NCBI GenBank assembly: GCA_963836045.1 | Contig: CAWIIC010000016.1 | Location: forward strand, 886-64,885 | From: an uncultured Pseudomonadota bacterium | Lineage (GTDB): Bacteria; Chloroflexota; UBA5177; JAJPKF01 | Direction of reading: 5' to 3' | DNA: 64,000 nucleotides | In this document: positions 1,094 to 52,638 of the stretch, one piece after another | Layout of the letters: every line of letters begins with the position of its first letter | Numbering within the stretch: the stretch's first letter is position 1 | Notes under the pieces: model-generated | Database searches by the model: none | What the model was told of the DNA's origin: nothing | Seen by the model: the letters and a program-made list of their open reading frames with translations, nothing else | Position numbers and translations under genes: made by a program

Positions 1094-1170
1094 CCACAAT
1101 TGGGGTGCTCGAGAAAGGCCTCCGGCGTGAAAATTGGACTCTCTCGGATGACGCGCTAGTCAGAAACTAA

Positions 1171-1731
1171 TTCGAAAATGAGTCGTCCGAGAATAGTCTC
1201 TCATCAATACGGCCCGCGACCCTTGGCCCAGAGGCGCCCATTTCATGCTTCGTGGTGGCCCGTCGGCATGGGTGGCTAGTTCGAAAATGGCGTTTGGAAT
1301 TCTCCACGGCGACCATCGTGCGGTAGCCCGGCGCTCCGTGGCCGGGGGGATGACGGCCGTCGTCAATATTCTGACTTCCCGCCTCAAAACCAAGCGACCA
1401 ACGGAGCCACTTTCATGCTCCGTGTGGCCGCAGGCCATAGCAATCTAGTTCGAAAATGACCGATCCGAAATGACTGTCTCCATAGGCTTACGACCCCGAT
1501 CGGGCTCCTATTTTCATGCTTCGTGGTGGCCCTTAGGCATGGGTGGCTACTTGGAAACGTAGCGCGACATCAATGACGCCCCGGGATGTGGGCTTGGACC
1601 GGTAGGGGCGACATTTATGACGCCCGGCGATGTCGGTGGTCGCATAATGCTGGCGAAGCGAGGTGCAGCGTCTGGAAACCACCAGCCCTACTTTCGTACT
1701 TCGTGGTGCCGGTAACGACATGGATGACTGA
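1171..1731 (+). repeat. Intergenic composite repeat, locus A: type I unit (1171-1279), type II/I hybrid (1280-1448), type I unit (1449-1550), divergent unit with type I-like tail (1551-1731)
   Basis: Units are joined at CTAGTTCGAAAATG. They share CCGARAATGRCTGTCTC...GGCTTA.GACCC...CTATTTTCATGCTTCGTGGTGGCCC..GGCATGGGTGGCTA with copies at 46316-46551, 51017-51222 and 51547-51770. The array ends exactly at the stop codon of the minus-strand GS-like gene (1732). Confidence 0.85.
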
Positions 1732-16623: not shown

Positions 16624-18051
16624 ATGCCGACTATCGACGAGCTGTGGAACGTCGTAAAGGAACAGCAGAAGGAAATCCAAGCCCACCGCGAGGAAATCCA
16701 GGCCCTGAGGAAGAAGCGTCATCGCGCCCCAGTTTCACGCCGAGGACTCGCCCTGGTCGCGACCGTCATCGCTGCCGTGGCCCTGAGCGGAGCCGCGTTT
16801 GCGGCTGGACCGGTCAGCGCCAATCTGGTCCATGGCTGCTACAGCCCCAACACCAGAGCTCTAACGCTTGCAAGGGTATCGGGGTGTCCAAAGGGCACCG
16901 TCGCGATCGCTTGGAATCAGTTCACCGCCATCACGGCGAGTAAACCCCTCACGGTCACGCCGGGTGTCAGGGGAAGTGCTCCCAACGTGACTCTCACCGG
17001 AACGGTGCCCACAGCTCGGAGCTTCACCGGCTCGTTGACTGGAGACGTGCGTGGCACCCAGGGCACGACCAAGGTGGGAGCGATACAGGGAGTGCCGGTA
17101 TCCAGGACCACGCCGAGCAACAGCCAGCTACTCGGTTTCAACGGCACCACCTGGACGCCGACCTCCGTCTATGATCCGCGGCAGGTCGCCCTGCTCAAGT
17201 GGTATTCCGAGCCGGCTGGTTGGGTACCCGCAAGCGTGACCGTGGGGACCGGCCCCTGGGGTGTGGCTTTCGACGGGAGCCACATCTGGGTCGCGAATGA
17301 AAGCACCGGAAACGTGAGCGAGATCGACGTTGCCGGCCACACCGTCATCAACACGGTTACGGTGGGTGGCAATCCAATCGGGGTTGCCTTCGACGGCAGC
17401 CACATCTGGGTCTCGAACGTCAACGACACGGTCAGCGAGATAAGCGACACGCCCACTCCCACCGTCATCAACACCGTGACGGTGGGGAGCGATCCTGGCG
17501 CCGTGGCCTTCGATGGCAGCCACATCTGGGTCTCGAACGACGCCGCCAACACCGTCAGCGAGATTGACGTGGCCACTCACAGCGTCATCAACACCGTGAC
17601 CGTGGGACCCCTGGGTGGACGTCGGGGCATGGCCTTCGACGGCAGCCACGTCTGGGTGGCGAACGACGGTGGCAATACCGTGAGCGAGATCGCTGACACG
17701 GCCAACCCCAGCGTCATCAACACCGTGACCGTGGGCAGAAATCCGCAAGGTGTGGCCTTCGACGGCAGCCACATCTGGGTGGCGAACGGCGCCAGCACCG
17801 TCAGCGAGATCGACGTGGCCACCCGCCGCGTCATCAATACCGTGACCGTGGGGCCCAACCCCGGTGCCGTAGCCTTCGACGGCAGCCACATCTGGGCGGC
17901 GAGCGACGACAACACCGTGAGCGAGATCGAAGTAGCCACTCACAGCGTCATCAACACCGTGAACGTGGGATCAACTCCCTTCGGCATTGCCTTCGACGGC
18001 AGCCACATCTGGGTTACGAACTTCGGCGGTACCACCGTGAGCATTCTCTAG
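16624..18051 (+). CDS. Membrane-anchored 7-blade YVTN/NHL-like beta-propeller protein
   Basis: ATG 16624 follows AAGGAG. Coiled N-terminus, then TM helix LALVATVIAAVALSGAAFAA. Then seven units of about 42 aa: VINTVTVG..P.GVAFDGSHIWV.N...NTVSEIDVA. Confidence 0.8.
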   Translation: MPTIDELWNVVKEQQKEIQAHREEIQALRKKRHRAPVSRRGLALVATVIAAVALSGAAFAAGPVSANLVHGCYSPNTRALTLARVSGCPKGTVAIAWNQFTAITASKPLTVTPGVRGSAPNVTLTGTVPTARSFTGSLTGDVRGTQGTTKVGAIQGVPVSRTTPSNSQLLGFNGTTWTPTSVYDPRQVALLKWYSEPAGWVPASVTVGTGPWGVAFDGSHIWVANESTGNVSEIDVAGHTVINTVTVGGNPIGVAFDGSHIWVSNVNDTVSEISDTPTPTVINTVTVGSDPGAVAFDGSHIWVSNDAANTVSEIDVATHSVINTVTVGPLGGRRGMAFDGSHVWVANDGGNTVSEIADTANPSVINTVTVGRNPQGVAFDGSHIWVANGASTVSEIDVATRRVINTVTVGPNPGAVAFDGSHIWAASDDNTVSEIEVATHSVINTVNVGSTPFGIAFDGSHIWVTNFGGTTVSIL

Positions 18052-32445: not shown

Positions 32446-32720
32446 CCGTGGCCGGCAAACAAGCCATTCCTTGAGCACGCAAGAACTGGAGGAAGAACAT
32501 GAAGCAACGAAGTATGAGCAGTCTCGAGAACCTGATCCGCCGCTGCACCATCGCCCTGTGCGCAGCTCGCACTGACTACGGCCGGTGTTGCGCTGAACTC
32601 ATCCGTCGGACCCGGTGCCATTGCGGCATCTCCAGCGGCGCTGACGGGCGTGCACGTCTTCGGCTGGGGATTCAATCAGCCTGACGCCATCGTATCCGAC
32701 GGCACCCACGTCTGGGTGGC
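32446..32720 (+). repeat. 5' leader cassette, copy 1 (promoter region, RBS and signal peptide of propeller paralogs)
   Basis: Aligns with 34646-34908, at an offset of 2200 nt at the start. Near-identical over GGAGGAAGA.CATGAA.CAACGAAGTATGAGC..TCTCGAGAACCTGATCCGCCGCTGCACCATCGCCCTGTGCGC. Confidence 0.8.
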
Positions 32721-34596
32721 CAACTACGCTGGGGACTCGGTTACGGAACTCGACGCATCGAACGGCGGACGGATCAGAACGATCGCAGGCCCGCGGTATG
32801 CGTTCGCGAGCCCGGTGTCGATCGCCTCGAGCACCGGCCACGTGTGGGTGGCCAACAGAGGCGGCAACTCGATCACGGAGCTCAGCGCCTTCACCGGCGC
32901 CCTCGTCAGGGTGATCTCTGGCATCCACGGCCCTGCGGCCATCACCACGAATGGCACCGACGTCTGGGTCGCCGCCCACTACCGGTGCGGTCACGCTGGC
33001 TGCGTCGACCACAGCCAGGTGACGGAGCTCAGCGCTTCGACTGGCCATGTCGTCAGACTGCTTTCAGGCCCCAGCTATGGGTTTGCGGACCCCGACGCGA
33101 TCTCCGCAGATGGCACGCACGTATGGGTCGCCAACTCCAGCGCTAACTCAGTCACCGAGGTCCGCGCTTCGACCGGAACCCTTACTCGGACACTCTCAGA
33201 CTCAAGCTACCGGTTCAACGAGCCCGACGCCATCGCGGTCGACGGCGCGCACGTTTGGGTGGCGAGCCCCGATCAACTCGCCGAGATCAACGCTGCAACC
33301 GGCCGCCTAGTCAAAGTGATCAATCTTACTGGGAATCTGGTCTTTCCACCCGGACCAGTCACGGATTCGGTTGCCTCAGACGGCGTGCACGTATGGGTGG
33401 TACATAGGTTCGGCCCTAACGGCGCCCTTGGCGGCGACAGCGGGGTTACTGAGCTGACCGCCTCAACGGGGAAGGTCGTTAGAGACGGATTGAGCCCGAG
33501 CTATGCCTTCGAGAGCGCCGACGCAGTTGCTTCGGACGGGGTCCATGTCTGGGTGGGGAACGAGCTGGGTGTCGGTGATGGAAGGTGTCGGACGTGCGGC
33601 CAGGCCACCGAGGTAGCAGAGGTCAGCGCGACGACCGGCGCCTTCGTTCGGGCGATCTCGGGGGCGAGCTATCGCTTTGCAGAACCCCGAGCCATTGCCC
33701 TGGGCGATTCCCGTGTCTGGGTCGCGAACGGCACCGGCAACTCTGTCACCGAGCTCAGCTCTACGACCGGCCGACTAGAGAGGGTGATCTCGGGCGGCTA
33801 TGGGTTCGTGGGTCCCGGCGCGGTCGCCACCGGCGGCGCCCATGTCTGGGTGGCGAGCGGCAACAACTGTATCACCGAGCTGAACGCGACGAGTGGGGCC
33901 TTGGTTCGGATGATCTCGGTTCCCACGCCGGGCTGCAACTCTTATTGTCCATCACTACGGGGCTGTGTCGAGGCCATTGCCGTGGACGGAACTCATGTCT
34001 GGGCGGGACTTTACCCTTCTAAGCCTCCCTATTCGCGTGCCGTGGCCGAGATCAGCGCATCGACCGGACAGGTCGTCAAGGTGATCTCGGGCGCGCGCTA
34101 CAAGTTTGCGAGTCTCCGCGCCATCGCGACCGACGGCACGCACGTATGGATCGCGAATGACGATGGTAATTCTGTCACCGAGTTGAACGCCCAGACGGGA
34201 AGCCTCATCAGGGTCATCTCAGACCCGTCGGACAGGTTCAACCATCCTGCTGCGATCGCCTTGAGCAGCGGTCATGTGTGGGTAGTCAGCAACGGCGATG
34301 GGAGTTCGAGCGGCGGCGTCACGGAGCTCGATGCTTCGACCGGAAAGCTCGTCAGCGTAATCTCACCCCCGTCGCTGCGCGGCGGCGCCGACGCCATCGC
34401 CTCCGATCCCGCTCACATTTGGGTGGCAAACATCCAAGGCTCGGTGACTGAGCTTAGCGCTCGGACCGGCAAGGTGATCGCGGTGTTGTCAGGCTCCGAG
34501 TACCAGTTCAATGGCCCCTCGGCGATAGCCACCGACGGCCGCCGCGTGTGGGTGGCGAACGGCCGCGGACAGTCGGTAACCGAGTTCCCGGCATGA
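32499..34596 (+). CDS. Secreted 14-blade NHL/YVTN-like beta-propeller protein, paralog 1; 1-nt frame disruption inside the signal peptide
   Basis: MKQRSMSSLENLIRRCTIALCAA is in ORF 32499..32684. The body is in ORF 32650..34596. Relative to the paralog (GCCGCCGCACTG) this copy reads GCAGCTCGCACTG, with one extra nt at 32562-32570. There are 14 units ending in ..DG.HVWVAN..G.SVTEL.A.TG. Confidence 0.75.
34312..34596 (+). repeat. 3' end cassette, copy 1 (last 285 nt of propeller paralog 1)
   Basis: Aligns without gaps to 36449-36733. I counted about 25 mismatches in 285 nt. Confidence 0.85.
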
Positions 34597-34645
34597 CGGA
34601 AAGAACCGCCAACTCGCATTCTCCCCGCCGGTCTGCACACTCGGA

Positions 34646-34908
34646 CCGCGGCCGGCACGCAAGCCGATCCTAACCACAGAAGAGCTGGAGGAAGAGCATG
34701 AAACAACGAAGTATGAGCCATCTCGAGAACCTGATCCGCCGCTGCACCATCGCCCTGTGCGCCGCCGCACTGATGACGGCCGGCGGTGCACTGAACGCAT
34801 CCGCGGCATCGAGACAACAGTCACCCACCGGAGTGAAGGTATTCGGCTGGGGTTTCAGCCACCCCAGCGCGGTTGCCTCGGATGGCAGCCATGTCTGGGT
34901 AGCTAACA
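34646..34908 (+). repeat. 5' leader cassette, copy 2
   Basis: See 32446-32720. Confidence 0.8.
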
Positions 34909-36733
34909 CGGATTCCGTGACAGAGCTAAACGCCGCCAGCGGGCACCTGGTCCGGGTTATCTCGGGCCTGGCCTATCCCTACGCCCGCCACTTCTTCAAT
35001 CCCGTCATCGCCATCGCTGCCCGCGGTGCCCATGTCTGGGTTCTCAACGGGGGCGCCTGCATGACCATCTGCTCGAAAGGTACGAACAGCTCGATAACCG
35101 AGCTCGATGCGGCGACGGGCAACCTGGTGCGGGTGATCTCGGGTCCCAAGTACCGGCTCAACTACTCGGCGGCAATCTCGGTGGCAGGCGGTGAGCTCTG
35201 GGTGGCCAACGGCCTAGGCACAAAAGGAGGCTCCGTCACCGAGGTCAGCGCTTCGACCGGTGATCTCGTTAGAGTGATCTCCGGCCCAGCGTTCCAATTC
35301 AGCGGCCCCGATGCCATCAGTTCAGACGGCGTTCATGTATGGGTAGCCGATGGGTCCGGCGCCTCTATCACCGAGCTTGAGGGTTCGACAGGCAAGTTGG
35401 TGCGGGTTATTTCACGTGCCGCGCTGGCGTTCCCCGTGGCTGTCGCCTCAGATGGCGCACACGTATGGCTGGCGACCGCTGTGTCCCCGGACGGGTGGGC
35501 GCTGATGGAGTTGAATGCTTCGACGGGCAATCCTATCAGAACGATCTCGGACTCGGGGTTCGAGTCCAACAATGTTCCGGGTGGCCTCTCCCTGCAGCGT
35601 GGCCGCCTATGGGTGGCGAACGAGGCCAGCGGTTCGGTCCTAGAGGTCGACGCGACGACCGGCGCCTCTGATCAGGACGATCTCCGGTCCCCGTTATGGG
35701 TTCAAGGAACCCGCCGGCATATCGGCGAATGGCGCCCACGTCTGGGTCGTCAACTATGACGGGAACTCGGTCACGGAGCTCAGCTCTCGCACTGGCGCCC
35801 TGGCGGCGACGATCACCGGGTCGAGCTACAGATTCAACGGGCCGGACGCCCTGGCCCTGGATGGCGGGCACATGTGGGTGGCAAGCGGTGGCTCTGTTGC
35901 CATGTTGAGCGCCAAGACGGGCCGGCTCCAACGCGCGATCTCGGACCCGACGCCCACGGCGATGGCGGCAGACAGCGCCCACGTCTGGGTGGCCAACACT
36001 GGCCTGGACGCCGTCACCGAGCTCAACGCGGTGAACGGCAATGTGGTCAGGGAGATCTCAGCAAAACAAATTGGTCTGAGCCTCACCACGTTTCGCAATT
36101 TAATCGCCGCGCGGCGGCACGCACGTCTGGGTCGCCAATAGCTTCCCAGCCTTCCGGGGCCGGTCACCGAGCTCAACGCCGCGGACTGCCCAGGTGGTAT
36201 CTGGGGAGAATCGTCATCGGGTTGCGGGCTCGACGTCGGGGCCATCGCCTCGGGTGCCACGGAACGTCTGGGTGGCGTGTGACGGCTCGTCTGGGAAGGG
36301 GTCGGTTGCGGAGCTAGGCGCTCGGACGGGAGGGTCGTCAGGGTTATCTCCGGCGCGTCGTTTCGATTCGCGGCTCCTGATGCGATTGCCCTCAACGGAG
36401 GCCACGTCTGGGTGGTCGAGCAACCCGCTAGTTGATGGCACGTCCAACGGTGGCGTCACGGAGCTCGATGCTTCGACCGGAAAGCTCGTCAGGGTAATCT
36501 CAGCCCCGTCGCTGCGCAGCGGCGCCGACGCCATCGCCTCGGACGCCACTCACATTTGGGTGGCAAACATCCAAGGCTCGGTGACTGAGCTTAGCGCTCG
36601 GACCGGCAAGGTGATCGCGGTGCTGTCGGGCTCCGAATACCAGTTCAGCGGCCCCTCGGCCATAGCTACGGACGGCCACCACGTGTGGGTGGCGAACAGC
36701 CTCGGACAGTCGGTTACCGAGTTTCCGGCGTAG
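34698..36733 (+). pseudogene. NHL/YVTN-like beta-propeller paralog 2; intact 5' third and 3' end, multiply frameshifted centre
   Basis: ORF 34698..35759 has an intact signal peptide MKQRSMSHLENLIRRCTIALCAAALMTAGGALNASAA and blades. From about 35660 the blade sequence hops between ORFs 35872..36141, 35874..36317 and 36194..36733, with at least 5 frame changes. The last 285 nt are highly similar to paralog 1. Confidence 0.8.
36449..36733 (+). repeat. 3' end cassette, copy 2
   Basis: See 34312-34596. Confidence 0.85.
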
Positions 36734-38509: not shown

Positions 38510-40312
38510 ATGAAATCCATCGGCGTAGCTGTTTCGACATCAGTCGTGCTCGCTGCCGCAACCTTCGCAACTGGGCCCGTTTCCGCAACCGCGATTGAGC
38601 ACGGTTCTACTACTACCCACGCCAACACTGCACTGCGGTTCAGAGGGGTTAGTGCCGGTTTTGGCTACGCCTGCGGCCTGACGAAAACACAAAAGGTTAT
38701 CTGCTGGGGAGATAGCCGCGGGGGTGCAGTCGATTCTCCAAGCGGTCGTTACATCCAGGTCAGCACGGGAGGAACGGGGTACTGGGCTGACGGCAACAAT
38801 TTCACGTGCGGGATAAAGAGCGGTGGAGCAGTGGTCTGCTGGGACGGAGATGTCACAACGCCATCCGGCAGGTTCGCCCAGGTCAGCGCAGCCCTGGGGG
38901 CCTTCTATGCGTGTGGAATCAAGCTCAGCGGCACTATCGTGTGCTGGGGAGGCGGCAGTCCCGGAGCCGGGGTTAGCCCCTCGACGCCGGTGGCAGGGAC
39001 GTTCACTCAGGTCACCACGGGCTCGGATCAAGGCGAAGAGATCGGATATGGCTGTGCGTTGAGGCGCAACGGTAGGCCGGTGTGCTGGGGCGGGGGTCCC
39101 GAGGTCACCGGACAACCGGTGGGCCCTGCCCCTGCGGGTCAGTTCACGCAGATCGCCGTGAACAACGGAGGGAGTTTGTTTGCCTGCGGCCTGAAGCGCG
39201 ACGCGGCGGTCGTGTGCTGGGGAGCTGTTCCACCAGGCAAGGTTCCGTCGGGTCCGTTCATCCAGATCAGTGGCACCTGCGGTCTGAGGGCAGGGGGACA
39301 AGTTGTGTGCTGGTACGGCGCGAATGGTGTCGTCAAGACATTCCGTCCAACAGGCAGACCCACGCAGTTCAGCGTTGCGGGAGATTCGGCCTGTGGCGTG
39401 CAAGTTGGTGGCGCGGCCGTCTGCTGGAATTTGAACAGCGGTCAAATGTTCGCCTCGACCCCATCACTCACGTACGTCACCGCTGCTGGGCAGGGAGGGC
39501 CAGGCGTATTCGATGCCGTTGGCGTCTGCGGGTTGCGGAAGAATAACTCGATCGTGTGCTGGGGCGGAGACGATTCTGGCGGCGGCACCCCAAAACCTCC
39601 TGCAGGATCGTTCACTCAGATCAGCCTTTACAGCACCGACGGCCTTGCCGGCTGCGGCGTGAAGCTTGGGGGGAAGGTTGTCTGCTGGGGGCAACGAGAC
39701 GGAGGTGAACCAGGTGAGTTGAACCCGCCTGCGGGCACCTTCACCCAGGTGAGCGTGGGACTCGTCTATTCCTGCGGTCTCAGGGTCGGAGGAAATATCG
39801 CCTGCTGGGGCGGCTGGGTGAAAACTACTCCGCCGTCCGGTCACTTTACCCAAGTCAGCAACGGGGCCGACTTTGCCTGCGGCCTGAGAACGGACGGACG
39901 CCTGGCTTGCTGGGGTCCCGACACGCATGGTGACACAAAGCCGCCTTCCGGTCGTTTCACGCAAGTTAGTGCGGGAGAGAACTACGCCTGCGCGGTGCGA
40001 ACCGGAGGGGCCATCGCCTGCTGGGGTGACGACAGCTCCGGCATGACGACGCCACCCTCCGGTCGGTTCACGCAGATCAGCGCCGGCGCTGGGGTCGCGT
40101 GCGGCCTAACAGCCGGTGGCACTGTCGCCTGCTGGGGCCAAGAGAACTCCAGGTGGCCCTGGCCCCCTTCTGGTCGCTTTGTTCAGATCAGCGCGGCCGG
40201 GAACTATGCCTGTGGAATCAGGACCCAAGGCGGCTTCCGATGTTGGGGAGAGCTAAATCTGCTGTATCCGGACGGAACCCTGTTTCCCTCAAAACCGGAC
40301 GGACCTGGATAA
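38510..40312 (+). CDS. Secreted RCC1-like repeat protein with 14 'ACGL...G.VVCWG' units
   Basis: ATG 38510 follows GAGGAG. Signal MKSIGVAVSTSVVLAAATFATGPVSATA. I counted 14 units ending in CWG/CWD/CWY/CWN with the period F(T/A)Q(V/I)S.G...ACG......G.V.CWG. Confidence 0.8.
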   Translation: MKSIGVAVSTSVVLAAATFATGPVSATAIEHGSTTTHANTALRFRGVSAGFGYACGLTKTQKVICWGDSRGGAVDSPSGRYIQVSTGGTGYWADGNNFTCGIKSGGAVVCWDGDVTTPSGRFAQVSAALGAFYACGIKLSGTIVCWGGGSPGAGVSPSTPVAGTFTQVTTGSDQGEEIGYGCALRRNGRPVCWGGGPEVTGQPVGPAPAGQFTQIAVNNGGSLFACGLKRDAAVVCWGAVPPGKVPSGPFIQISGTCGLRAGGQVVCWYGANGVVKTFRPTGRPTQFSVAGDSACGVQVGGAAVCWNLNSGQMFASTPSLTYVTAAGQGGPGVFDAVGVCGLRKNNSIVCWGGDDSGGGTPKPPAGSFTQISLYSTDGLAGCGVKLGGKVVCWGQRDGGEPGELNPPAGTFTQVSVGLVYSCGLRVGGNIACWGGWVKTTPPSGHFTQVSNGADFACGLRTDGRLACWGPDTHGDTKPPSGRFTQVSAGENYACAVRTGGAIACWGDDSSGMTTPPSGRFTQISAGAGVACGLTAGGTVACWGQENSRWPWPPSGRFVQISAAGNYACGIRTQGGFRCWGELNLLYPDGTLFPSKPDGPG

Positions 40313-40505
40313 CAGCAATACGTTGCTGTTGAAGATCTGACGTAAATCCGCGAGGTACTGGCTGATCCTCATTCGAGTACCCAGGCTCCGCCCAAATCTC
40401 TAGAGTTGTTCGGCAGCTCGAATCTCCTTATTGGGGGCAAGGATAGCTGGGCTTCAGAGAGAAATGAATACCGGCGCCGGCCGGAATGTAGGTTCCTCCC
40501 CAGCC

Positions 40506-42252
40506 TTACGGCCGCGCGGGAACGCTCATGTGCAGAACCTGTCCCCAACATCTAACGCCACCCGTGCTCAGGAGACCGCACGCGTAACCGTTGCCTTTGC
40601 TTCCCGGCTGCGACTGAGGAAACTTGTTGGCGGTTATCTCCGCGAACGTGTCCGACGGCGGTCGCGCCTGACCAGAAGAGTTGTTTCCCCAGCAACCCAC
40701 CTTGCCTCCGACCCTGATCGCGCAAGCGAAATTGTTGCCCGCGCTCACGGCGGTGAAGGAACCTGCCGGCACGTGCGCCTGCCCCTGACTCTTGTCACCC
40801 CAACACACTACCGAGCCGCGGACCTTCAGGCCGCACGCGAATCGATAACCCGCGCTTACCTGTGTGAACGCGCCGGACGGCGGGTGCGCCTGCCCCGATG
40901 AGTTGTTCCCCCAGCAGACCACCTTACCGCCCTTCTTGACGCCGCATCCATAGTTGTCTCCGGCGCTGATCTGTGTGAATATGCCCGATGGAGGCCTAGT
41001 CTGTCCGGCGGAGTTGCTGCCCCAGCAGACAATCGTGCCCCGGCTCCTCAAACCGCACGCAAAACGGCGTCCGGCAGTCACTTGGGCGAAGGCTCCGGCT
41101 GGCGGCTTCGCCTGGCCGTTCCCATTGCTTCCCCAGCATATGATCTGGCGGCTCGAGCCGAGCCCGCAAACAAAGGCGTATCCCGCGCTGACCTGAGTGA
41201 GCTTCACTGATGGCACCATGGCAAGGGCGTCGTTGGTGTACCCCCAACAGACCGAAGCTCCACCTCTCAGCCCGCAAGCAAACTCGTAGCCCGCGCTGAC
41301 CGCCATAAACGGTTCTGTCGGCACGATGGTTTGACCCTCGAGGTTGTTGCCCCAGCAGCGCACCGTCCCGTCAGTCGTGAGACCGCAAGCGAAATACGTC
41401 CATGAGCTCGTGCTCATCTGAGAGTACGATCCTGGTGGCACTTTCGACAGGATTCCCCAGCAGATTCCCATACCGCCCGACATCACGCCGCATGCGCTTC
41501 CGTCACCGGCGCTCACCTGCGTGAACGACCCCGAGGGAGCTTGTTCTACACCACTGGAGCTCGATCCCCAACATGTAACCGACCCTCCGGTGGCTATGGC
41601 GCACGCATTGTACTCACCCACGCTCACTTGCGTGTAAGTACCGGTAGTGGGTGAGTTCTGGCCCGCGATAGCCGTCTCCCCAGCAGACGATCGAGCCGCC
41701 GTTGCTCAACGCGCAGGCAGAAAATGAGGAACCTACACTGATCTGTGTGAATGTGCCGCTCGGGACGGATGTCACCACGGCGCCGCGCCCCCAGCAGACA
41801 ATCGAGCCCGAATTGTTCAACGCGCACGCATACCCGTTGCCGGCACTGACCTGCGTGTAGTTTCCCGCCGGAACCTTCTTGACGTTGGCGAAGTCACTTC
41901 CCCAGCACACCACCGAACCGTCTGTCCGAACCCCACACGTGAAAAAGACGCCCGAGCTGATCTGCTTGTAAGTCCCGGGCGGAACATTCGTTTGGCCATA
42001 TTCGGCATCACCCCAGCACAGCACTGAGCCGTCAGCCTTGAGCCCGCACGTCGTCTCAGCGCCCGCGCTGAGGCTGACGAAGCCGGTACCCGCTGCAACA
42101 TCCGAATCGTAGCTTGTCAGACCGCTCCTCCCAATAGAAACCCCCATGTTGTGGTGCAGGCCGCCTGCCACGGCCGCCGTCGGAACGGCGCCGGCCAGCA
42201 GAACACCCGCGATAACTGCGGCTGCAGAAAGGCCACGAAGCATCTTATTCAT
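40506..42252 (-). pseudogene. Secreted RCC1-like repeat protein (14 CWG units) split by one frameshift
   Basis: ORF 41614..42252 has the signal MNKMLRGLSAAAVIAGVLLAGAVPTAAVAG and 4 units. ORF 40506..41627 has 10 units with WGNNSSGQA-type RCC1 signatures. The reading joins as ...CWGDGYRG / QNSPTTGTYTQVSVGEYNACA near 41655-41670. Confidence 0.75.
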
Positions 42253-43362: not shown

Positions 43363-44502
43363 TACTGGTTCGTAACTGAATTAACTGGACAATAGGTACC
43401 ATCCCCGTGTACGCTCCAGTATGTGGACCAAAGCATCGCCTCTCGCTCTCTCCGATGCCGACCGAGCGACCCTCGTCACCTGGGTTCGTGCTCACAACTC
43501 GCCGCAGAGCCTTGTGCTCCGTTCAAAGATCATCCTGGCCGCCGCCGACGGACTGGCAAACCACCGGATCGCATCCGATCTCGGCACAACCCGGTCGACC
43601 GTCTTGCTCTGGCGCAAGCGCTTCTCTTCGGGAGGACCAAGCGCTCTCACTGAGATCGCACCGGGTCGTGGCCGCAAGCGTTCAATCAGCCCGGATGACG
43701 TGGCCGCTGTGGTAGACGCAACTCTGCAGACCAAGCCCGCCGACGCGACCCACTGGAGTACCCGCAGCATGGCGAAGGAGGCGGGTGTCAGTCACCAAAC
43801 TGTCCATCGCATCTGGGATGCTCACAACCTTCATCCGCATCGGGTGCGAACCTTTAAGCTGTCTACCGACCGGCAGTTTCTCGAGAAGCTCACTGATGTA
43901 GTCGGTCTGTATCTCAACCCGCCGGATAAGGCAGTCGTCCTGTGTGTGGACGAGAAATCGCAGATTCAGGCACTCGACCGTACCCAGCCGACGCTCCCGA
44001 TGGTCCGCGGTCGGTGCCAGACGATGACCCATGACTACAAACGAAATGGGACCACGACCCTGTTCGCCGCTCTGAATGTTGCCGAGGGTACGGTGTTCGG
44101 TAACTGCGCACCGCGCCATCGCCATCAAGAGTTTTTGAGCTTCCTTCGCCGGCTGGATCGGGAGTTACCTAGTTCCGTCGATCTCCACCTCGTGCTCGAC
44201 AATTACGGCACCCACACCCACCCGAAGGTCAGAGAGTGGCTGGCAACTCACCCTCGCTTCTACTTCCACTTCACGCCCACCTCCTGCTCCTGGCTGAACC
44301 TCGTCGAGTGCTGGTTCAGCACGCTCACCCGCAAACGACTGAAGCGGGGGGCCTTCGGCAGCGTCCCGGAACTCATCGATGCTATCTCCGCCTTCATCCA
44401 GATGCACAACTCCGACCCCACGCCCTTCGTCTGGACCGCCTCTGTCCAGTCCATCCTTCGGAAGGTCGAACATTGTCAAGCTATTTCAGGAACGAACCAC
44501 TA
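43363..44502 (+). mobile_element. IS630-family insertion sequence with terminal inverted repeats and TA at both ends
   Basis: Left end TACTGGTTCGTAACTGAA (43363-43380). Right end TTCAGGAACGAACCACTA (44485-44502). 15 of 18 positions are complementary. TA at both extremities fits IS630/Tc1-type TA target duplication. Total size is about 1.14 kb. Confidence 0.8.
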
Positions 44503-44503
44503 G
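43421..44503 (+). CDS. IS630-family transposase (DDE)
   Basis: 360 aa, uninterrupted. N-terminal HTH regions, then VLCVDEKSQIQAL...HDYKRNGTTTLFAAL...LHLVLDNYGTHTHPKV..W...PRFYFHFTPTSCSWLNLVECWFS, typical of IS630. Confidence 0.9.
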   Translation: MWTKASPLALSDADRATLVTWVRAHNSPQSLVLRSKIILAAADGLANHRIASDLGTTRSTVLLWRKRFSSGGPSALTEIAPGRGRKRSISPDDVAAVVDATLQTKPADATHWSTRSMAKEAGVSHQTVHRIWDAHNLHPHRVRTFKLSTDRQFLEKLTDVVGLYLNPPDKAVVLCVDEKSQIQALDRTQPTLPMVRGRCQTMTHDYKRNGTTTLFAALNVAEGTVFGNCAPRHRHQEFLSFLRRLDRELPSSVDLHLVLDNYGTHTHPKVREWLATHPRFYFHFTPTSCSWLNLVECWFSTLTRKRLKRGAFGSVPELIDAISAFIQMHNSDPTPFVWTASVQSILRKVEHCQAISGTNH

Positions 44504-44687: not shown

Positions 44688-44915
44688 ATGGCGATGAGGA
44701 AAACCACTGTCTACCTTCCCGACGACCTCCGTTCGGACATCAAGCGCGCTGCTAAAGTTAGCGGGCGGAGCGAGGCAGATTTGATCCGAGAAGGCATTCG
44801 CAGAGTCGTTGACGACACAGTGGCACCGCGGCCTACTTTGCCCCTCTTCGATAGCGGAGACCCTCATCTAGCGGATCGGGTTGATGAGTTGCTCATTGGC
44901 TTCGGCGAGGATTGA
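44688..44915 (+). CDS. vapB: Ribbon-helix-helix (CopG-like) antitoxin, VapB-type
   Basis: MAMRKTTVYLPDDLRSDIKRAAKVSGRSEADLIREGIRRVV. The stop overlaps the next gene's start (TTGA). Confidence 0.75.
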   Translation: MAMRKTTVYLPDDLRSDIKRAAKVSGRSEADLIREGIRRVVDDTVAPRPTLPLFDSGDPHLADRVDELLIGFGED

Positions 44916-45331
44916 TCCTTCTCGACACGAGCGGGTTGCTAGCCGCGCTCGATCGAAGCTCCTCTTCGGGAGCCGCTGCCCGAGCGCTCGTGGAAGCGGA
45001 AGACCGCCGCATCCTGTCACCATTTGTCGCAGCTGAGCTTGACTACCTCATTTGCACTCGATTCGGTCCACATGCCGAGCGCGCGTTCTTGTCCCAGCTG
45101 GCTTTAGGCGTGTACCAGTTGGCGACGTTCTCTGGCCCTGACCTCAGGGAGGCGCTGGAGATTATTGAGTCTCACGCCAACATTAATCCTGGACTTGCGG
45201 ACGCGTCGCTTGTGGTCCTCTCAAGACGCCTAAATTGCTTAAATCTGCTAACTCTGGACGAACGTCACTTTCGTGTTCTTAACGGAGCCGGTAAGAGGCC
45301 CTTCCGTATCCTCCCCGCCGACCGTGCCTGA
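44912..45331 (+). CDS. vapC: PIN-domain ribonuclease toxin, VapC-type
   Basis: MILLDTSGLLAALDR...SPFVAAELDYL...GLADASLVVLSRRL....LLTLDERHF. The acidic PIN residues are in the expected order. TTG start. Confidence 0.8.
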   Translation: MILLDTSGLLAALDRSSSSGAAARALVEAEDRRILSPFVAAELDYLICTRFGPHAERAFLSQLALGVYQLATFSGPDLREALEIIESHANINPGLADASLVVLSRRLNCLNLLTLDERHFRVLNGAGKRPFRILPADRA

Positions 45332-45522
45332 GGACCTCCCTCAATGGGAAAGGACTGGATACAGTTCACAATGCAACAAATCAGTTCGCGACCCTACCTT
45401 CCTACGCCGCGACCCTCCTACGTCGGAAAGTCTGAGCGAGGCAGTTAGCACTGCGGAACACCTGGTGAGAAGAGCTCGTGAATGGTCGCCGTTCGCCAAC
45501 CTGTCGGCCTGGTTGTATCCGA

Positions 45523-46038: not shown

Positions 46039-46315
46039 CGAACTCTCCCATCTCATCCTCCTCCTATATAAGGTATAGCGGCTTCCCACTAAGCTCATAC
46101 GGTAGGGGACCCTCCTAATGTAGCCCTGTCCGGGCATGAGCCTCTATGAAGTCGCTCACACCCCCGGTCATAGCCAACCTGGCTAGAAGAGGGACGGAAG
46201 GCCATCCAGGAGCTGGTGGGCAGAGGCGACTCCGAGTTTCAGGTGGCGAGCGAAGCCGGCGTTCTGAACGGAGAATGTGCAGGCGGCGGCCGGGTGAGCC
46301 GGTATCGTGGTCTGG

Positions 46316-46551
46316 TTCTCAAAATGGCGCTCGAAGCCTTGCCTTCATTAGCCTTCCTGTACACGACGAACCACCCTGACCCGACCGCTATTTTCATGCT
46401 TGGTGGTGCCCATAGCCATGCGAGGCTAACTCGAAACTGCCGTTGAATCCTCCACGTAGACCATCACCGCGACTAGTGTGCTGAGTCTTCCAAGCCCGTG
46501 CGCTCGCGGTCGCTGGAACTGAAAACTGACAACTGAAAACTGACAACTCTC
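46316..46551 (+). repeat. Intergenic composite repeat, locus B: degraded type I unit (46316-46429), type II module (46430-46516), heptamer array (46517-46551)
   Basis: ...CTATTTTCATGCTTGGTGGTGCCCATAGCCATGCGAGGCTAA CTCGAAACTGCCGTTGAATCCTCCACG...GCGGTCGCTGG AACTGAA AACTGAC AACTGAA AACTGAC AACTCTC. Confidence 0.8.
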
Positions 46552-46552
46552 T

Positions 46553-46903
46553 GTGATCACCTTCACGCCGGCTGTGTCGGCCAGACGACGTACGAAAGAG
46601 CAGCTCTCGACATACGCTCTCATCAGGACCGAAACAGAATCACTCAGATTTCAGAAGGGCAACGGTGAAGTAGTGAGCGAATTCTATATGCACCCACAGG
46701 ACCGAGCGAAAGCCTACAACGCAAACACTGAAATCAAGATGAAGACATTGGTTCACCGGCAATCCTTGCGCGCCGCTGGCGAAGAGGCGAGAGCCGCCCG
46801 AAGAGCGGCGCGGGTCGACTCAAGGCGAGACCGCCGAGCCAGCAGCTGGCTACACAGCGCAGGCTCCTGGGCGAGGAAGCTTTTGCCCATGTCACAGACC
46901 TGA
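46553..46903 (+). CDS. Possible small Arg-rich hypothetical protein (weak)
   Basis: ORF in a locally AT-richer stretch, followed 30 nt later by the 46933-46961 hairpin. Internal ATGs at 46688 and 46739. No homology recognised. Confidence 0.2.
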   Translation: MITFTPAVSARRRTKEQLSTYALIRTETESLRFQKGNGEVVSEFYMHPQDRAKAYNANTEIKMKTLVHRQSLRAAGEEARAARRAARVDSRRDRRASSWLHSAGSWARKLLPMSQT

Positions 46904-46932
46904 CATAGCATTCACTTCTACTCCTCAAGGCT

Positions 46933-46961
46933 GGGCGGGACCTCTTCAAAAGGTCCCGCCC
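46933..46961. terminator. Perfect 10-bp GC-rich hairpin between convergent ORFs; likely intrinsic terminator
   Basis: GGGCGGGACC-TCTTCAAAA-GGTCCCGCCC. It lies about 70 nt past the stop of the minus-strand surface-protein gene (47030) and 30 nt past ORF 46553..46903. The flanking T-runs are weak. Confidence 0.5.
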
Positions 46962-47029
46962 TCCTTCTGCGAGCTGGCAAATGAATGGAGTCGGCCTCAC
47001 CTACGCTTTCCCCAGAAGTGCGAACAACC

Positions 47030-50000
47030 TCAAGGCCCCTGCACGATCACGCTCTGGCTCCCGCTTGTGGCGTCGCTCGTGCGGTCGCCGGCGTAGAGCC
47101 CCGCCACTTGCCATGTGCCGGCAGTGAGCGGGCCTCCTGTCGGAGTCGTCAGCGTGTCGCTGAAGCTGCCGTTCGTGTCGGTCTGTGCGATGTCGACCAC
47201 GGGCGCGGAACCGTCCGGCGGCGAATAGGTGATTCGGACAATGCGGTTGGCCAGCGGAGTCGGTCCCCCGGCGGGCGTGACGACGGTGCTGTCGAGTGTG
47301 CCCTGGCAGGAAATGTTGTTCGATCCCGATGAGGAGCACTGGAAGGACTGGAACTTCGTCGCCACTTTGACCGGGTTGACTGTCAGGTCGTAGGTCACTG
47401 TGCGGGTAGAGCCCGCGGACACTGGGTCGCTCGGGGCCGCCGTGATGGTGATCGGGTAGGTTCCCGCGGGTGTGGACGGTGATGTTCGAATGGTCAGTTT
47501 GGAGGACTTTCCGGCCAGCAGAGAGGCCGGCTTGAGGGAGGCAGTGGTCCCCAACGGCAGGCCGCGAATACCGAGCTTCATTCTCAGTAACCTGCCCGAA
47601 TACTGGCTGGTTTGCACCATAGCCGAGACGGATTGGCCCTGGAGTACCGACCCTCCGGAAGGGCCGACCGCGAGCGAGACGACGTTCTGGACCGGCGTGA
47701 CCGGCGGCTGAACCTTGTTGAATGAGCAGCCCTCGAGACAACTGGATCGCAGCGCGGCGAACAGGACCTCGGCCGCTTGACCGCGGGTCACGGCCCTGCG
47801 CGAAGCGTAGGTGTGGAACGCCTGCTTGAGGTAGCCCATCGCCACGCCCTTCTTGATCTTGAGGGTCTTGACGAGACCCGTGACCAGGGCGGCCTCAGTG
47901 ACCGGCAAGTTCTGTCCGCGGGACGACCCGAAGGTCAGGGTCAGCACCCGAGACGGCGCGAGATGCACCATGCCGCCCAGGGCGCCGGCGAGCTCGATCC
48001 TCGTGATCGCCGCTGAGGGCCTGAACGCGTCGTCGGCATTCGCGCTCATGTATCCCAGGTAGGTCAGGACGTCGATCGCTTGGCTCGCCGGGTCACCCGG
48101 GCGCACATCGACGAAGCGTTCGCGGCTGACGGCCTGCCCGTTGACCGTGCCGAGGTAATTGATCGCCAGGTATCGTTTGTAGGTGGCAAGCTTCCCAATC
48201 AAGCTGGGCGATCCCGGAGCGTTGGGATCCTGGTACATGAAGGTGCCGAAGGCCCGATCGAGGTAGACGTTCGCCTCGGGCTGTTGGGGCATCGGGTTGT
48301 GACACTTCGGGCAGCTCGGGCTGGCGGAAGTCGTGTTGTCGAAGTCATTGAGATCCACCGCCGCCGTGGTTTCCTGCGTGGTCGTGTTGGCCGTGGAGTC
48401 AGAGTACTTCGTGTCTTGAGAGTAATCCTCCGATGTCTGCTCCCCCGATGACAGCGTCATAGTCCCCTTCTCCGAGAGCCCGCCGTAGCTCTCAGTGAGG
48501 GTGAAGCCGCCGCCGACGTCGGTGGTATTCACGTCTGAGTATCCGCTCTTGGAGGTCAGGACCGTTCCGCTCCCCTGGGTTGTCTTGTTTGTGTTGTCCC
48601 AGGATTGGGAGAAGTCCAGCGGATTCTTCTCGTTGTACGGGTAGCTGGCTCCATAGCTCCCCACGTTGGGGGAGATTGGGATGCCGCGAGAGGTCTGGAC
48701 ATCCGCGCCCTGCCCTGCCCCGTAGAACGGGTCTAGCGCCAGCAAGTTGGCCGCTTCCTGCGACGTAAGCTCCACGCAGGAGTCCTCCGGAGTTTGGGGC
48801 GGCATGTCGTTGCATGAGGTCGGGTGGTACACCACGTTGCCGTTGTAGGTGATCTCCACCCCGCCGAACTGGATGAGGCACGGATCGACCCCGGCGCTCC
48901 ATTGACCGATACGGCAGTCCTCGAGCTGCAGTACCGAGACGTGGGCCAGCGTAGGTACCGCCGCCTTTGTGATCCACAACGATTGACCCGCGCTGACCTC
49001 GTAGACCCGGTACTGGGTATGAAGATTGAGCAGGAACTCGTCCTCCCAGAAGGGCTCGCCGGTGTACTGCGCTAGCCTCGACGGATGGATCAGGTCCCCT
49101 GTGGAGCAGTCCCAGCTCTGTCCGGTCTGCGCCGGCGGGGCGCAGGTCGAGCCGTCTCCCGGAACGAGGCTGTTGTCGGGGTTGTTGAAGGCCCAGGTGG
49201 TCTTGATCGCTGTAGTGTCGGTGGACTCGTCGGATGACGAGACTGTGCTGCCGAATCCCGCCACCGTGCTGTTGTCCCACTTATATGAATCGCTGAAATT
49301 CACGCCCAGGATGCCGGCGGTTATCGAATCCTCGAATTTGGCGCTGTTGGTCTGGGTGTCCTTGTAGTTGTCGCTGGTCGTGCTGTCGTTACTGAGCTTG
49401 TAATCCGTGCCGAAGCCGAGGTTGGTCGTGTATGACGCCTTGCTGAGGTCCCCGGTTGGGTGGTAGAGGATGGTGTATGGCTCGACCGTCATCTGGGCGT
49501 AGGCGACCGGTGCCCAAATCACGTTGAACCCCTTGGAAAATCCATTGGAGCTGCGGTACAAGGGAGTCCCGCCGTGACTGTCGGTCTCGGACACATACCA
49601 CTGAAAACGATACGTCGCGACGTGGTCCGAATTCGTCTGGCTCGAGTTCGGATCTGGAGCCTGGATTGTAAGGCCACCGTGCGCGGTGCCGTCCCCGCCG
49701 GGTGACGTCAGACTGTCCGACACGTAGGTGCTCGGCACGTCCTCCCAGTAGCCGGTGTTGCCGTCCCAGTTGGTGCACGTGCCGTACTTCTGACTGACGC
49801 CGCTCTCGACGTCACAGACCTGCAAGCTGGCGCCGTACCCCCCGGTGTCGCCCAAATTGCGGTACTGCCCGTTGGACCCCCAGGTGCCGCTCTGGTTCTC
49901 CGGAAACGAGCCGGACTGGTCATTGAAGTACGTGGCTATGTGAAATGTTTGGTTCGGCAGGGCAAAGGGGAGCGTGTCCGGAGGCTGGAACAGCTCCTCG

Positions 50001-50509: not shown

Positions 50510-51016
50510 GGGATGCCTCCTTTGATAACCAACTGCAGCACACTCAGAACTCAGCTCTCAGCAATTGAGGTCAACCACCTCTGGCCAGCCCCCATGCAAG
50601 ACGCTGGGCTCAGTGGCAGACCTACGACCTTTGTTCGCCACGTACCGAACACCATCCTGTCCCCAAGTGTTCCTCTTCCGTTTCCGGGATGGTCTCACCG
50701 ATGCCCCAGCCTCGATCGTGGCGAGCCGTACTCTCAGGGGACGGTGACCGGCGAACACTGATCGCTACACCGGCGGCGAATGCTTGAGCACCTACTCCCA
50801 AGAGAAGAATGGCCACCGCGACCGTTGCTATGTGCGGTGGCTTTCGCGTCTCGCTTCGTCGCAAATCGGACGACTTAAAAGACAATCCTACACCCATCCA
50901 GGCAACTTGTCAATAGTCAAACTCAGTCACAGAAACGGGTGTCACGACAGCGCGATCGTTGACCATCTCCAGCCGCTCGCTTGCTTTGAAAAGCGCGGCG
51001 ACAGCAAAGCTTCTAG

Positions 51017-51222
51017 TTCGAAAATGAGTGGTCCGAGAATGGCTGTCTCAATGGACGTACGACCCGACCCGGCGCCCATTTTTATGGTTCGTGGTGCCCC
51101 AAAAGGCATGGGAGGCTAGTTCGAAAATGACCGGTCCGAAAATGACTGTCTCAATAGGCTTAAGACCCTCATCCGGCTCCTATTTTCATGGTTCGTGGTG
51201 GCCCAAAGGCATGCGTGGCTAA
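51017..51222 (+). repeat. Intergenic composite repeat, locus C: two tandem type I units (51017-51119, 51120-51222)
   Basis: Each unit runs from TTCGAAAATGA to GGCATG.G.GGCTA(G/A). Each holds an ATG-to-stop reading of 31 codons (ATG at 51024 and 51127). Confidence 0.85.
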
Positions 51223-51546
51223 CGATCCCGACCTCCCGGATATCGGCAGACCTCGTCCTGGATCAACCACCAGCCGCCGAGAAGTTATCCACAATGCTCC
51301 TAAAAGAGCCCTAAAAAGCCGCGGACAGTCCTCTGTCCATGGCCTTTCGCTAACTCCCGTTTTTCGGCGCCAGCATTGGCCCCGCGCCCGACACGCAAAA
51401 ACGTTCACTCGTCCGTCAGCTATAGATACCGACAGAAACGACGGCTTACCGAAATCCTACGCCTATTCGCCCGCCCGCGCGCCACGCAACCCCGGCCCGG
51501 AGCCACACAGACCCAGTCCGCATCCAACCGGGTACCCCAACCACTA

Positions 51547-51770
51547 AATCGACAATGAGTGGTCCGCGAATGGTTGTTTCAAGGGGCTTAAGACCCTGGC
51601 CCGGCCCCTATTTTTCATGTTTCGTGGCGCCCCGAAGGCATGGGAGGCTAACTCGAAAATGGCATCGCAATCCTCCCCGGCGACCACCACCGCGACTACT
51701 ATGGTCTTCCATGCCCGGGCGGTAGCGGTCGCTGGAACTGAAAACTGAAAACTGACAACTGACAACTACT
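51547..51770 (+). repeat. Intergenic composite repeat, locus D: type I unit (51547-51651), type II module with hairpin (51652-51735), heptamer array (51736-51770)
   Basis: Type II module: CTCGAAAATGGCATCGCAATCCTCCCCG GCGACCACCACCGC...GCGGTAGCGGTCGC TGG. Then AACTGAA AACTGAA AACTGAC AACTGAC AACTACT. The CTA at 51766-51768 is the reverse complement of the crp stop codon. Confidence 0.85.
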
Positions 51771-52512: not shown

Positions 52513-52539
52513 CGAACCCGTGGGCCGCCCATGGCTGGA

Positions 52540-52638
52540 GCAGTTGTTTCGCAGCCGTGGTCCGGTGTTTCATTGCCCGGCCGGTCGTGGTCGCCTGAAA
52601 CTGAAAACTGAAAACTGACACCTGACAACTAAAAACTA
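52540..52638 (+). repeat. Intergenic composite repeat, locus E: short type II-tail remnant plus heptamer array (52595-52638)
   Basis: ...GGTCGTGGTCGC CTGAAA CTGAAAA CTGAAAA CTGACAC CTGACAA CTAAAAA CTAC. The CTA at 52636-52638 is the reverse complement of the stop codon of the frame-corrected HExxH gene. Confidence 0.8.

Follow-up and report, generated by a model that had tools for sequence, protein, structure and literature searches.

What are the short intergenic repeats of contig CAWIIC010000016.1, and by what process could they have been stacked head to tail between its genes? The 64,000-nt stretch of this contig analyzed here (referred to as the window) resembles Chloroflexota, from which the best named homologs of its glutamine-synthetase-family gene (GS gene) derive, and harbors eight copies of one conserved module of approximately 55 nt, all on the + strand and distributed across three intergenic gaps (loci 1 to 3). 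The module forms the tail of longer units, which are designated type I where they contain the module, type II where a foot and a hairpin core are present without it, and type III where two similar internal hairpin repeats precede a weak module tail; type II units are followed by runs of the heptamer AACTGA(A/C). We propose that these repeats are probably non-autonomous miniature mobile elements of the class represented by repetitive extragenic palindromic (REP) sequences, bacterial interspersed mosaic elements (BIMEs), and the IS200/IS605 family, mobilized by an HUH Y1 nuclease. A first-pass annotation, prepared from the sequence alone, had described a modular, head-to-tail, intergenic family with conserved ends and a variable middle, all of which proved genuine. 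The repeats were, furthermore, found where that annotation had placed them, as the tail motif TTTTCATGSTTCGTGGTG (≤3 mismatches) occurs seven times in the window, always on the + strand, where 0.06 occurrences are expected, the joint TTCGAAAATG (≤1 mismatch) occurs 10 times against an expected 2.06, and a covariance model of the conserved unit tail, R1, detected all eight module copies and returned no match on the − strand. The degraded copy at 46316-46429, the tail of the II/I hybrid, and the type I-like tail of unit 1551-1731 were each recovered by R1, whose training alignment took in five of the eight window copies (those at 1407, 1688, and 51180 were left out).

The evidence that the units move as discrete pieces of DNA comes from three contigs of close relatives, one ENA sample having yielded L140 and L150 and a JGI sample L149. 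Two window proteins have database entries of identical sequence, and the contigs were found via close relatives of both. Downstream of the DinB/MST gene, L150 carries a 123-nt type I unit (R1 match at L150:5724-5769, 39 bits) at CGAACT|GGTTCGAG...GGGAGGCT|GATT, where the window reads CGAACTGATT; the corresponding empty insertion site lies at approximately 45337..45342 on the − strand, reading CGAACT|GATTTG. In L149, a 56-nt minimal unit, which starts ACTTAG and ends GGATGACT, is located within the heptamer run beside the Crp/Fnr gene (AAAACT|ACTTAGAAAGTCCCCCACTTTCATGCTTCGTGGTGTCGGTAACGACATGGATGACT|GAC), whereas the same run is uninterrupted in the window (AAAACTGAC). A 635-nt block (51015-51649) is, conversely, present in the window and missing from L149, and its exact bounds coincide with the unit ends CT|AGTTCG and GGGAGGCT|AACTCG; the shared flank GCAAAGCTTCT| is followed at once in L149 by a type II unit.

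L140 provides a different form of evidence, in that five type III units (approximately 95% identical) lie between its short-chain dehydrogenase (SDR) and GS genes, and two of these units bring with them a duplicate of the final 66 nt of the GS gene. The co-amplified junction reads GCTGCT|ACTTGG, the native gene reading GCTGCT|CGG, and one further unit is truncated at CGTACT|, such that two independent rearrangements in L140 each have one endpoint exactly at the unit left end. The left end is therefore precise in L140, with surrogate right ends at NCT. The copies of the GS gene end and of the type III unit together form a repeat of approximately 240-248 nt at L140:2043-3122 on the − strand (TRF period 248).

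Both filled sites show insertion after AACT|, both filled/empty sites and both L140 surrogate ends fall 3′ of CT, and, on direct reading, all 10 unit left junctions in the window are preceded by CT; in the units of Desulfobacterota, the flank and the unit end read TT| rather than CT. No target duplication beyond the shared CT is evident at the two filled/empty sites. These comparisons show that the units are discrete, have precise ends, sit 3′ of (A)CT, themselves end in CT, and vary in presence between close relatives. Head-to-tail stacking is accounted for because the 3′ end of each unit recreates the target. The units recognized in the first-pass annotation are, thus, real, but its boundaries were displaced, the CT|A boundary defined by the filled and empty sites lying 2 nt further to the left; unit 1 accordingly spans 1169-1277 rather than 1171-1279. 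Separately from these unit-bounded differences, L150 is without approximately 4.8 kb present in the window (~47000-51767) and in L149, comprising a 1,159-aa TIG/SLH-domain gene and the locus 3 arrays; at L150:4036-4110, the Crp/Fnr gene directly follows the sequence downstream of locus 2, and the left breakpoint, near 46995, is not a unit end. Near the orthologous region, L149 also encodes a reverse transcriptase of the group II intron type (L149:15775-17217; RVT_1 plus GIIM).

Each unit is laid out as a left foot, R-N-T-T-C-G-A-A-A-A-T-(A/G), a variable core, an inverted foot, C-Y-ATTTTC, and a conserved 3′ cassette composed of ATGnTTC-GTGG-y, a 5-bp stem with its loop (the P2 hairpin), and CATGrGnGGCT. 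The precise left end conforms to R-N-T-T-C/G-G-A-A-A, and GAAAATAG is the foot which opens each unit, its inverse, CTATTTTC, opening block A, the first of the two conserved blocks (A and B) between which the P2 hairpin lies. The module consensus reads (c)TATTTTCATGnTTCGTGGyGCCCC, a loop of 1-9 nt, and then GGGGCATGAGGGTTTAnTACGAAAATA. The core is represented by a GC-rich hairpin, in some instances with GTAG..CTAC ends, or by a heptamer run, the heptamers being lineage specific; the hairpin of the right end is conserved and the core of the left end variable. The two ends are unrelated in sequence and no terminal inverted repeats are present. Among the layouts seen in other genomes, the commonest is a solitary unit (48 of 149) in which a CGAAAAT foot precedes the variable core, block A, the hairpin, and a block B with a GGGTTTA end, which bears out the polarity originally assigned to the window units. 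The hairpin loop of the module can host other hairpin elements, and a perfectly palindromic variant, with the reverse complement of block A placed after block A itself (TTTTCATGATTCGTGGC ... GCCACGAATCATGAAAA), was observed at L061:2274-2344.

The family extends well beyond the window. A 21-nt tail pattern matches at least 115 loci in at least 38 assemblies, where approximately 4 chance matches are estimated from its information content and the stated database size, and the similarity reaches past the pattern itself, the CATG and GGGTTTA/TACGAAAATA blocks being conserved too. R1 yielded 140 matches in 673 kb of pattern-bearing loci and was silent across 190 kb of unrelated metagenome loci; the 21-nt pattern itself had no match in viral contigs, and a first pattern run against metagenomes matched nowhere. 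Among the matches listed, with phyla taken from the record titles of the bins, most derive from Desulfobacterota or Syntrophales (at least 24 loci in a single bin), and the remaining labels include Chloroflexi, Dehalococcoidia, Firmicutes, Peptococcaceae, "Ca. Acetocimmeria", Symbiobacterium, Acidobacteriota, Nitrospinae, Latescibacterota, and Thermodesulfovibrionia. The earlier view that the repeats match no known family holds insofar as their literal sequences were found in no paper in a literature search and Rfam returned no match in the window at the gathering score, matches of chance level only at E values of up to 10, and none on the modules of 18 related loci; it does not hold for their anatomy, which fits the REP/BIME and IS200/IS605 class.

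Two traits that had been put forward for the window copies, namely, a single orientation and an association with gene ends, do not generalize. The uniform + orientation is correct for the window, but it is not significant, as it rests on only three independent gaps (chance, ~0.25) and the 123-nt unit of L150 is oriented opposite to all window units. Each array gap is, as claimed, found at the 3′ side of a gene on the minus strand, but the genes that border locus 1 are convergent, and, at loci 2 and 3, a further minus-strand gene has the gap at its 5′ side. Across 70 placements in the at least 115 related loci, orientation relative to the flanking open reading frames (ORFs) is random (the four classes numbering 23, 18, 15, and 14), and neighboring arrays within a locus share their orientation in eight cases and oppose each other in seven (tallied from the R1 match tables). 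Modules occupy successive intergenic gaps around housekeeping genes, and no protein family recurs among their neighbors, upstream ORFs, or ORFs between modules apart from common housekeeping families, and a transposase was not found in any of these three sets. This lack of a recurrent neighbor and the random orientation are as expected for dispersed selfish repeats. In related Desulfobacterota bins, orthologous gaps with flanks of 82-94% identity hold different mosaics (L014:3280-3620 versus L056:5160-5520 and L017:1200-1640 versus L086:5160-5470), one of the two pairs differing by exactly one heptamer copy, which indicates fast turnover and slippage.

The P2 hairpin is a genuine structure. 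Covariation analysis, which the first-pass annotation had suggested, was applied to the GCCCC/GGGGC stem across the 140 R1 matches and revealed 29 double-change cells compared to 4.2 in shuffled alignments, a count that was not attained in any of 500 shuffles; 91.9% of the cells of the 5-bp stem are paired. Support for pairing of the foot stem GAAAATA/TATTTTC is weak, with 41 of 136 compared to a mean of 26.7 under permutation. In the consensus and the window copies, GTGG sits 1 nt (Y) 5′ of the 5-bp stem and the CT end follows approximately 12 nt downstream. Because short REPs have been described with a GT[AG]G foot, located 1-2 nt from a short stem in one subclass of REP-associated tyrosine transposases (RAYTs) (PMC6006769), the hairpin may be considered REP-like. 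GTGG was part of the search pattern, and its invariance across the at least 115 loci is, therefore, partly by construction; it is, nonetheless, kept in most of the 43 R1 matches without the exact pattern, with point changes in a few.

The nature of the enzyme that could act on such hairpins is suggested by TnpAREP of Escherichia coli, which requires a 5′ GTAG foot and cuts single-stranded DNA at CT in either flank of the REP hairpin (PMC3479197). A tblastn search with a RayT sequence, which served as a lead only, identified a 158-aa ORF in L086, a contig from the bin with the most module loci among the matches listed. Its product is a Y1_Tnp protein (Pfam PF01797, E = 8e-10) whose homologs are named RAYT by their sources, and many hairpins, in both orientations, flank this gene and its homologs (L141-L144), each built from the GAAAATAG foot, a stem of 8 bp, and a loop of 3 nt. 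In L145, the RAYT start codon has a complete, module-bearing unit immediately upstream, and a more distant RAYT (L148) is associated with classic GTAG REPs and zero modules. No autonomous copy with tnpA or tnpB between unit ends was found in approximately 1 Mb of related loci. At L143/L144:7340-7980, approximately 900-1000 nt downstream of the RAYT gene and within the same REP-rich region, there is another, divergent Y1_Tnp gene, two Y1 genes thereby occurring in one REPtron-like locus.

It is proposed that a RAYT/TnpA-like HUH Y1 nuclease, encoded elsewhere in the genome, would read the GTGG-footed hairpin, cut at CT, and join the units as single-stranded DNA. The resemblance to the cutting and joining at CT by TnpAREP is one of sequence. 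Such an enzyme would be predicted to cleave single-stranded TTCGTGGTGCCCC..GGCATGGGAGGCT|A after CT, and units, or hairpins having a CGAAAATG foot, would be expected on the flanks of the cognate Y1 gene.

A number of observations weigh against this assignment. The arrays are direct, not alternating as in classic BIMEs/REPINs; single units fold no better than shuffled sequence on either strand, and the wobble pairs within the stem (17 G-U versus 22 A-C) do not indicate a folding strand. The hairpins flanking RAYT genes in Desulfobacterota (GTCAGGCA..) differ from the block A/B hairpin, the foot alone being common to both, and only one REPtron (L145) has the module beside its RAYT gene, with a modest score of 27.8 bits. 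The GAAAATAG foot with an immediate hairpin is, moreover, not enriched in the at least 115 loci (45 of 410 sites, compared to 66 of 690 control sites). As the junction CT is shared, the insertions are formally indistinguishable from those with a constant 2-bp target duplication, and the locus 2 array is approximately 90% identical in L150, like its flanks, such that not every copy is turning over. Neither the window nor L140, L149, or L150 contains a Y1 or RAYT gene, which is unsurprising because RAYTs typically occur at about one copy per genome (PMC5581495). Conflicting phylum names are, finally, attached to loci which are 99.5-99.8% identical (L045 and L095, labeled Acidobacteriota and Deltaproteobacteria, and L013 and L060, labeled Deltaproteobacteria and Thermodesulfovibrionia), and the breadth across phyla is uncertain for this reason. 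These conflicting labels are probably due to contig mis-binning; lineage-specific variants of the module sequence argue that the cross-phylum breadth may be real at least in part.

Certain of these features would also be accommodated by other mechanisms. The units could be miniature rolling-circle elements of the Y2 HUH type (IS91- or Helitron-like), with a precise 5′ end and a 3′ hairpin terminator located approximately 12 nt upstream of a CTRR-like end, read-through of which would give rise to tandems and captured flanks. The head-to-tail arrays, the ..GGCTAG 3′ end of the window lineage with its hairpin approximately 12 nt upstream, the absence of both terminal inverted repeats and target-site duplications, and the L140 unit which carries 66 nt of the flanking gene, its left end being precise and its right end a surrogate, are all in keeping with this explanation, as would be a likeness of the unit termini to those of Helitron/IS91 elements. 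Neighbor surveys, however, identified no Rep/Y2 gene near any copy, and every HUH gene found together with the shared foot is a Y1 RAYT; since a GT[AG]G foot, like cleavage at CT, is a Y1/RAYT hallmark (PMC3479197, PMC6006769), a rolling-circle origin is considered unlikely. A transposase of the DDE type acting on a miniature inverted-repeat transposable element with a constant 2-bp CT duplication, or the decay of local duplications through slippage and unequal crossing-over in the manner of variable-number tandem repeats (VNTRs), appears very unlikely, even though each insertion is bordered by CT on its two sides, the window encodes an IS630 (DDE_3) transposase at 43421-44503, and slippage does operate on the heptamers, whose copy number or sequence differs between orthologous loci. 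The left and right unit ends are unrelated and lack terminal inverted repeats, units of one type recur at sites that are dispersed and unrelated, as well as in other genomes, for which local duplication cannot account, and the two independent L140 rearrangements share the exact unit left end as an endpoint.

A function at the RNA level, whether as a tandem small-RNA array, a stabilizer within an untranslated region, or a terminator module, would explain why the hairpin covaries, why the flanking single-stranded blocks are strongly conserved, and why arrays adjoin stop codons, and E. coli REPs are reported to affect mRNA turnover (PMC3479197). We nevertheless judge it quite improbable that sequence and hairpin are conserved for such a function. 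Rfam is silent on these units, folding stability does not exceed that of shuffled sequence on either strand, the wobble pairs display no strand asymmetry, orientation relative to genes is random, with 15 of 70 placements lying between divergent genes, and the exact-ended presence/absence polymorphism indicates movement at the DNA level. Promoter-like or terminator-like sites were not detected within units; terminator-like sites numbered zero in 900-1900, with none inside units in 46100-52800.

More specific interpretations were also discarded. A bidirectional terminator (A-tract, hairpin, and T-tract) was dropped for the window units after the promoter and terminator scans, while, on inspection, a sigma-54 promoter reading of TGG..GC suffered from a spacing that is off by one and a loop of varying length, which likewise places a putative small peptide (ATG..TAG within the module) out of frame. 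A hammerhead-like resemblance (CAUGAG..CGAAA) failed through core mismatch and the silence of Rfam, and a Tn3-like inverted-repeat (TIME) reading of GGGG..ACGAAAA is contradicted by solitary units, which start CGAAAATA and end GGGTTTA, i.e., with opposite polarity. The notion that heptamers serve as insertion-target arrays was abandoned, as their sequences are diverse and GTT is found on the module strand in 8 of 22.

Returning to the window, locus 1, between the convergent SDR and GS genes, holds units of types I, II/I, I, and III, all on the + strand, as are the units and heptamer runs of the other loci. Its first type I unit (1169..1277; R1 1237-1289, 53 bits) comprises the left end AATTCGAAAATG, the block A/P2 hairpin/block B module, and the right end GGGTGGCT, and is followed by a hybrid unit (1278..1446; R1 1407-1458, 34.9 bits), which alignment resolves into a type II-like core and a divergent module tail ending in GCAATCT, and by a second type I unit (1447..1548; R1 1508-1561, 45.8 bits). 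The type III unit (1549..1729; R1 1688-1734, 19.1 bits, E = 0.018) has the left end ACTTGGAAACG and the tail end GGATGACT and adjoins the stop codon (1732-1734) of the GS gene. An internal direct repeat had been reported for this last unit; it is visible in the sequence, and homologous units in L140 show a 44-nt period.

At locus 2, a degraded type I unit (46314..46427; R1 46388-46439, 51 bits), which has an ortholog of approximately 90% identity in L150, is joined to a type II unit (46428..46516) with the foot AACTCGAAACTG and the hairpin core ..GACCA...GGTCGCTGG, and then to an AACTGA(A/C) run of 4.6 copies (46517..46548; TRF), which is kept in L150 with A/C changes at the seventh position. 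Locus 3 comprises two adjacent type I units (51015..51117, R1 51076-51129, 63 bits, and 51118..51220, R1 51180-51225, 35.6 bits, with a TRF period of 103), a non-repeat spacer of approximately 325 nt (51221..51545) that lies inside the 635-nt block and ends in CCACT, a further type I unit (51546..51649; R1 51609-51661, 59.8 bits), and a type II unit (51650..51735), the L149 ortholog of which directly follows the flank GCTTCT|. The heptamer run at 51736..51767 (TRF), the empty site of the 56-nt L149 unit, reaches the stop codon of the Crp/Fnr gene. The type II end together with the AACTGAA/AACTGAC run is exact at 46508-46529 and 51727-51748 by pattern search and TRF. GGTCGTGGTCGCC and, after it, a third heptamer run (52598-52637) are located at 52580..52637 on the + strand, without the block A/B module.

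The heptamer runs beside type II units belong to a separately reported phenomenon, TAACTGA tandem heptanucleotide repeats having been described in Beggiatoaceae, Cyanobacteria, and Bacteroidetes (PMC4679880) and heptanucleotide elements in Geobacter metallireducens (PMC2700814). The window runs, (A/C)AACTGA, have the same core and are intergenic, and that at 46517-46548 ends 4 nt before a GTG-start ORF, comparable to the start-codon-proximal repeats of Beggiatoaceae (PMC4679880); they differ in following a type II mosaic unit and, for two of the three runs, in lying 3′ of a gene. Heptamers in soil and peat metagenome contigs (L116-L139) often form an inverted pair, (TCAGTTN)n, a spacer with GGTCGC, and (NAACTGA)n, and these contigs contain no R1 match and no block A/B module. 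The GTG-start ORF (46553-46903, +), which encodes 116 aa without a Pfam match, lies in a region approximately 90% identical in L150, GTG included, and may be a real small gene with heptamers in its leader.

Other features of the window include the IS630-family transposase gene mentioned above (43421-44503, +; DDE_3 plus HTH), located approximately 1.8 kb from locus 2 and followed by a PIN-domain gene (44912-45331), and long in-frame tandem repeats within large ORFs (17235-18051 and 32650-36730; 38790-41950). One set of the latter has periods of approximately 117-132 nt and the motif ..DG.H.WV.N.., and the other, found on both strands, has a period of approximately 111 nt and the motif C-G...G..-CWG. 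These look like beta-propeller-type protein repeats that are unrelated to the intergenic units.

The clean filled and empty sites, which are rare, fix both the exact ends of the units and their target, rendering the mechanism directly testable. The family can also serve to mark variation at the strain level among uncultivated Chloroflexota and Desulfobacterota, and the co-amplification in L140 shows one route by which gene-end fragments are duplicated. A bolder, tentative extension is that the 55-nt cassette could constitute the recognition end of an unrecognized, horizontally spreading clade of RAYT-like HUH nucleases, which might still transpose units of 56-180 nt, stack them, and sometimes copy pieces of genes, acting as a bacterial "mini-Helitron-like" shuffler of which the heptamer runs would be possible by-products or cargo.

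Among known systems, the mycobacterial MIRU/VNTR-type repeats, which had been named as the nearest analogy, resemble the present family in being tandem intergenic units of approximately 50-100 bp with a copy number that varies between relatives. MIRUs lie within operons, are co-oriented with transcription, and carry small coupling ORFs. The analogy fails on the random orientation of the units described here and their occurrence at dispersed sites with exact ends, and their out-of-frame loop lengths argue against a conserved coding frame. A closer correspondence is found with IS200/IS605 elements and palindrome-associated transposable elements (PATEs), which share the lack of terminal inverted repeats and of target duplication, insertion 3′ of a short specific sequence resembling the 3′ end of the element itself, and a subterminal hairpin with a guide-like 5′ flank; the left-end hairpin is, in contrast, variable here and does not appear to match that of the right end.

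With REP/BIME-RAYT systems, the family has in common short, high-copy, intergenic hairpins (eight modules in the 64-kb window, all intergenic) with a conserved 5′ foot, here GTGG together with GAAAATAG on the cores, and the clustering of different hairpin types and conserved linkers into mosaics. The window junctions fall at CT, the dinucleotide cut by E. coli TnpAREP, hairpins that share the GAAAATAG foot flank the RAYT genes of related bins, and the units are oriented at random with respect to genes. The usual description of REPs and RAYTs is that they are lineage specific, vertically inherited, and, in the case of REPs, arranged in inverted pairs. The present family departs from this pattern, and from the REP and IS200/IS605 class as known, in that its arrays are strictly head to tail, with alternation seen only among the RAYT-flanking hairpins; its unit is asymmetric, with a widely conserved 55-nt 3′ cassette that is near-identical across bins labeled as distant phyla; and clean single-unit insertions, as well as co-amplified flanking gene sequence, are demonstrable between close relatives.

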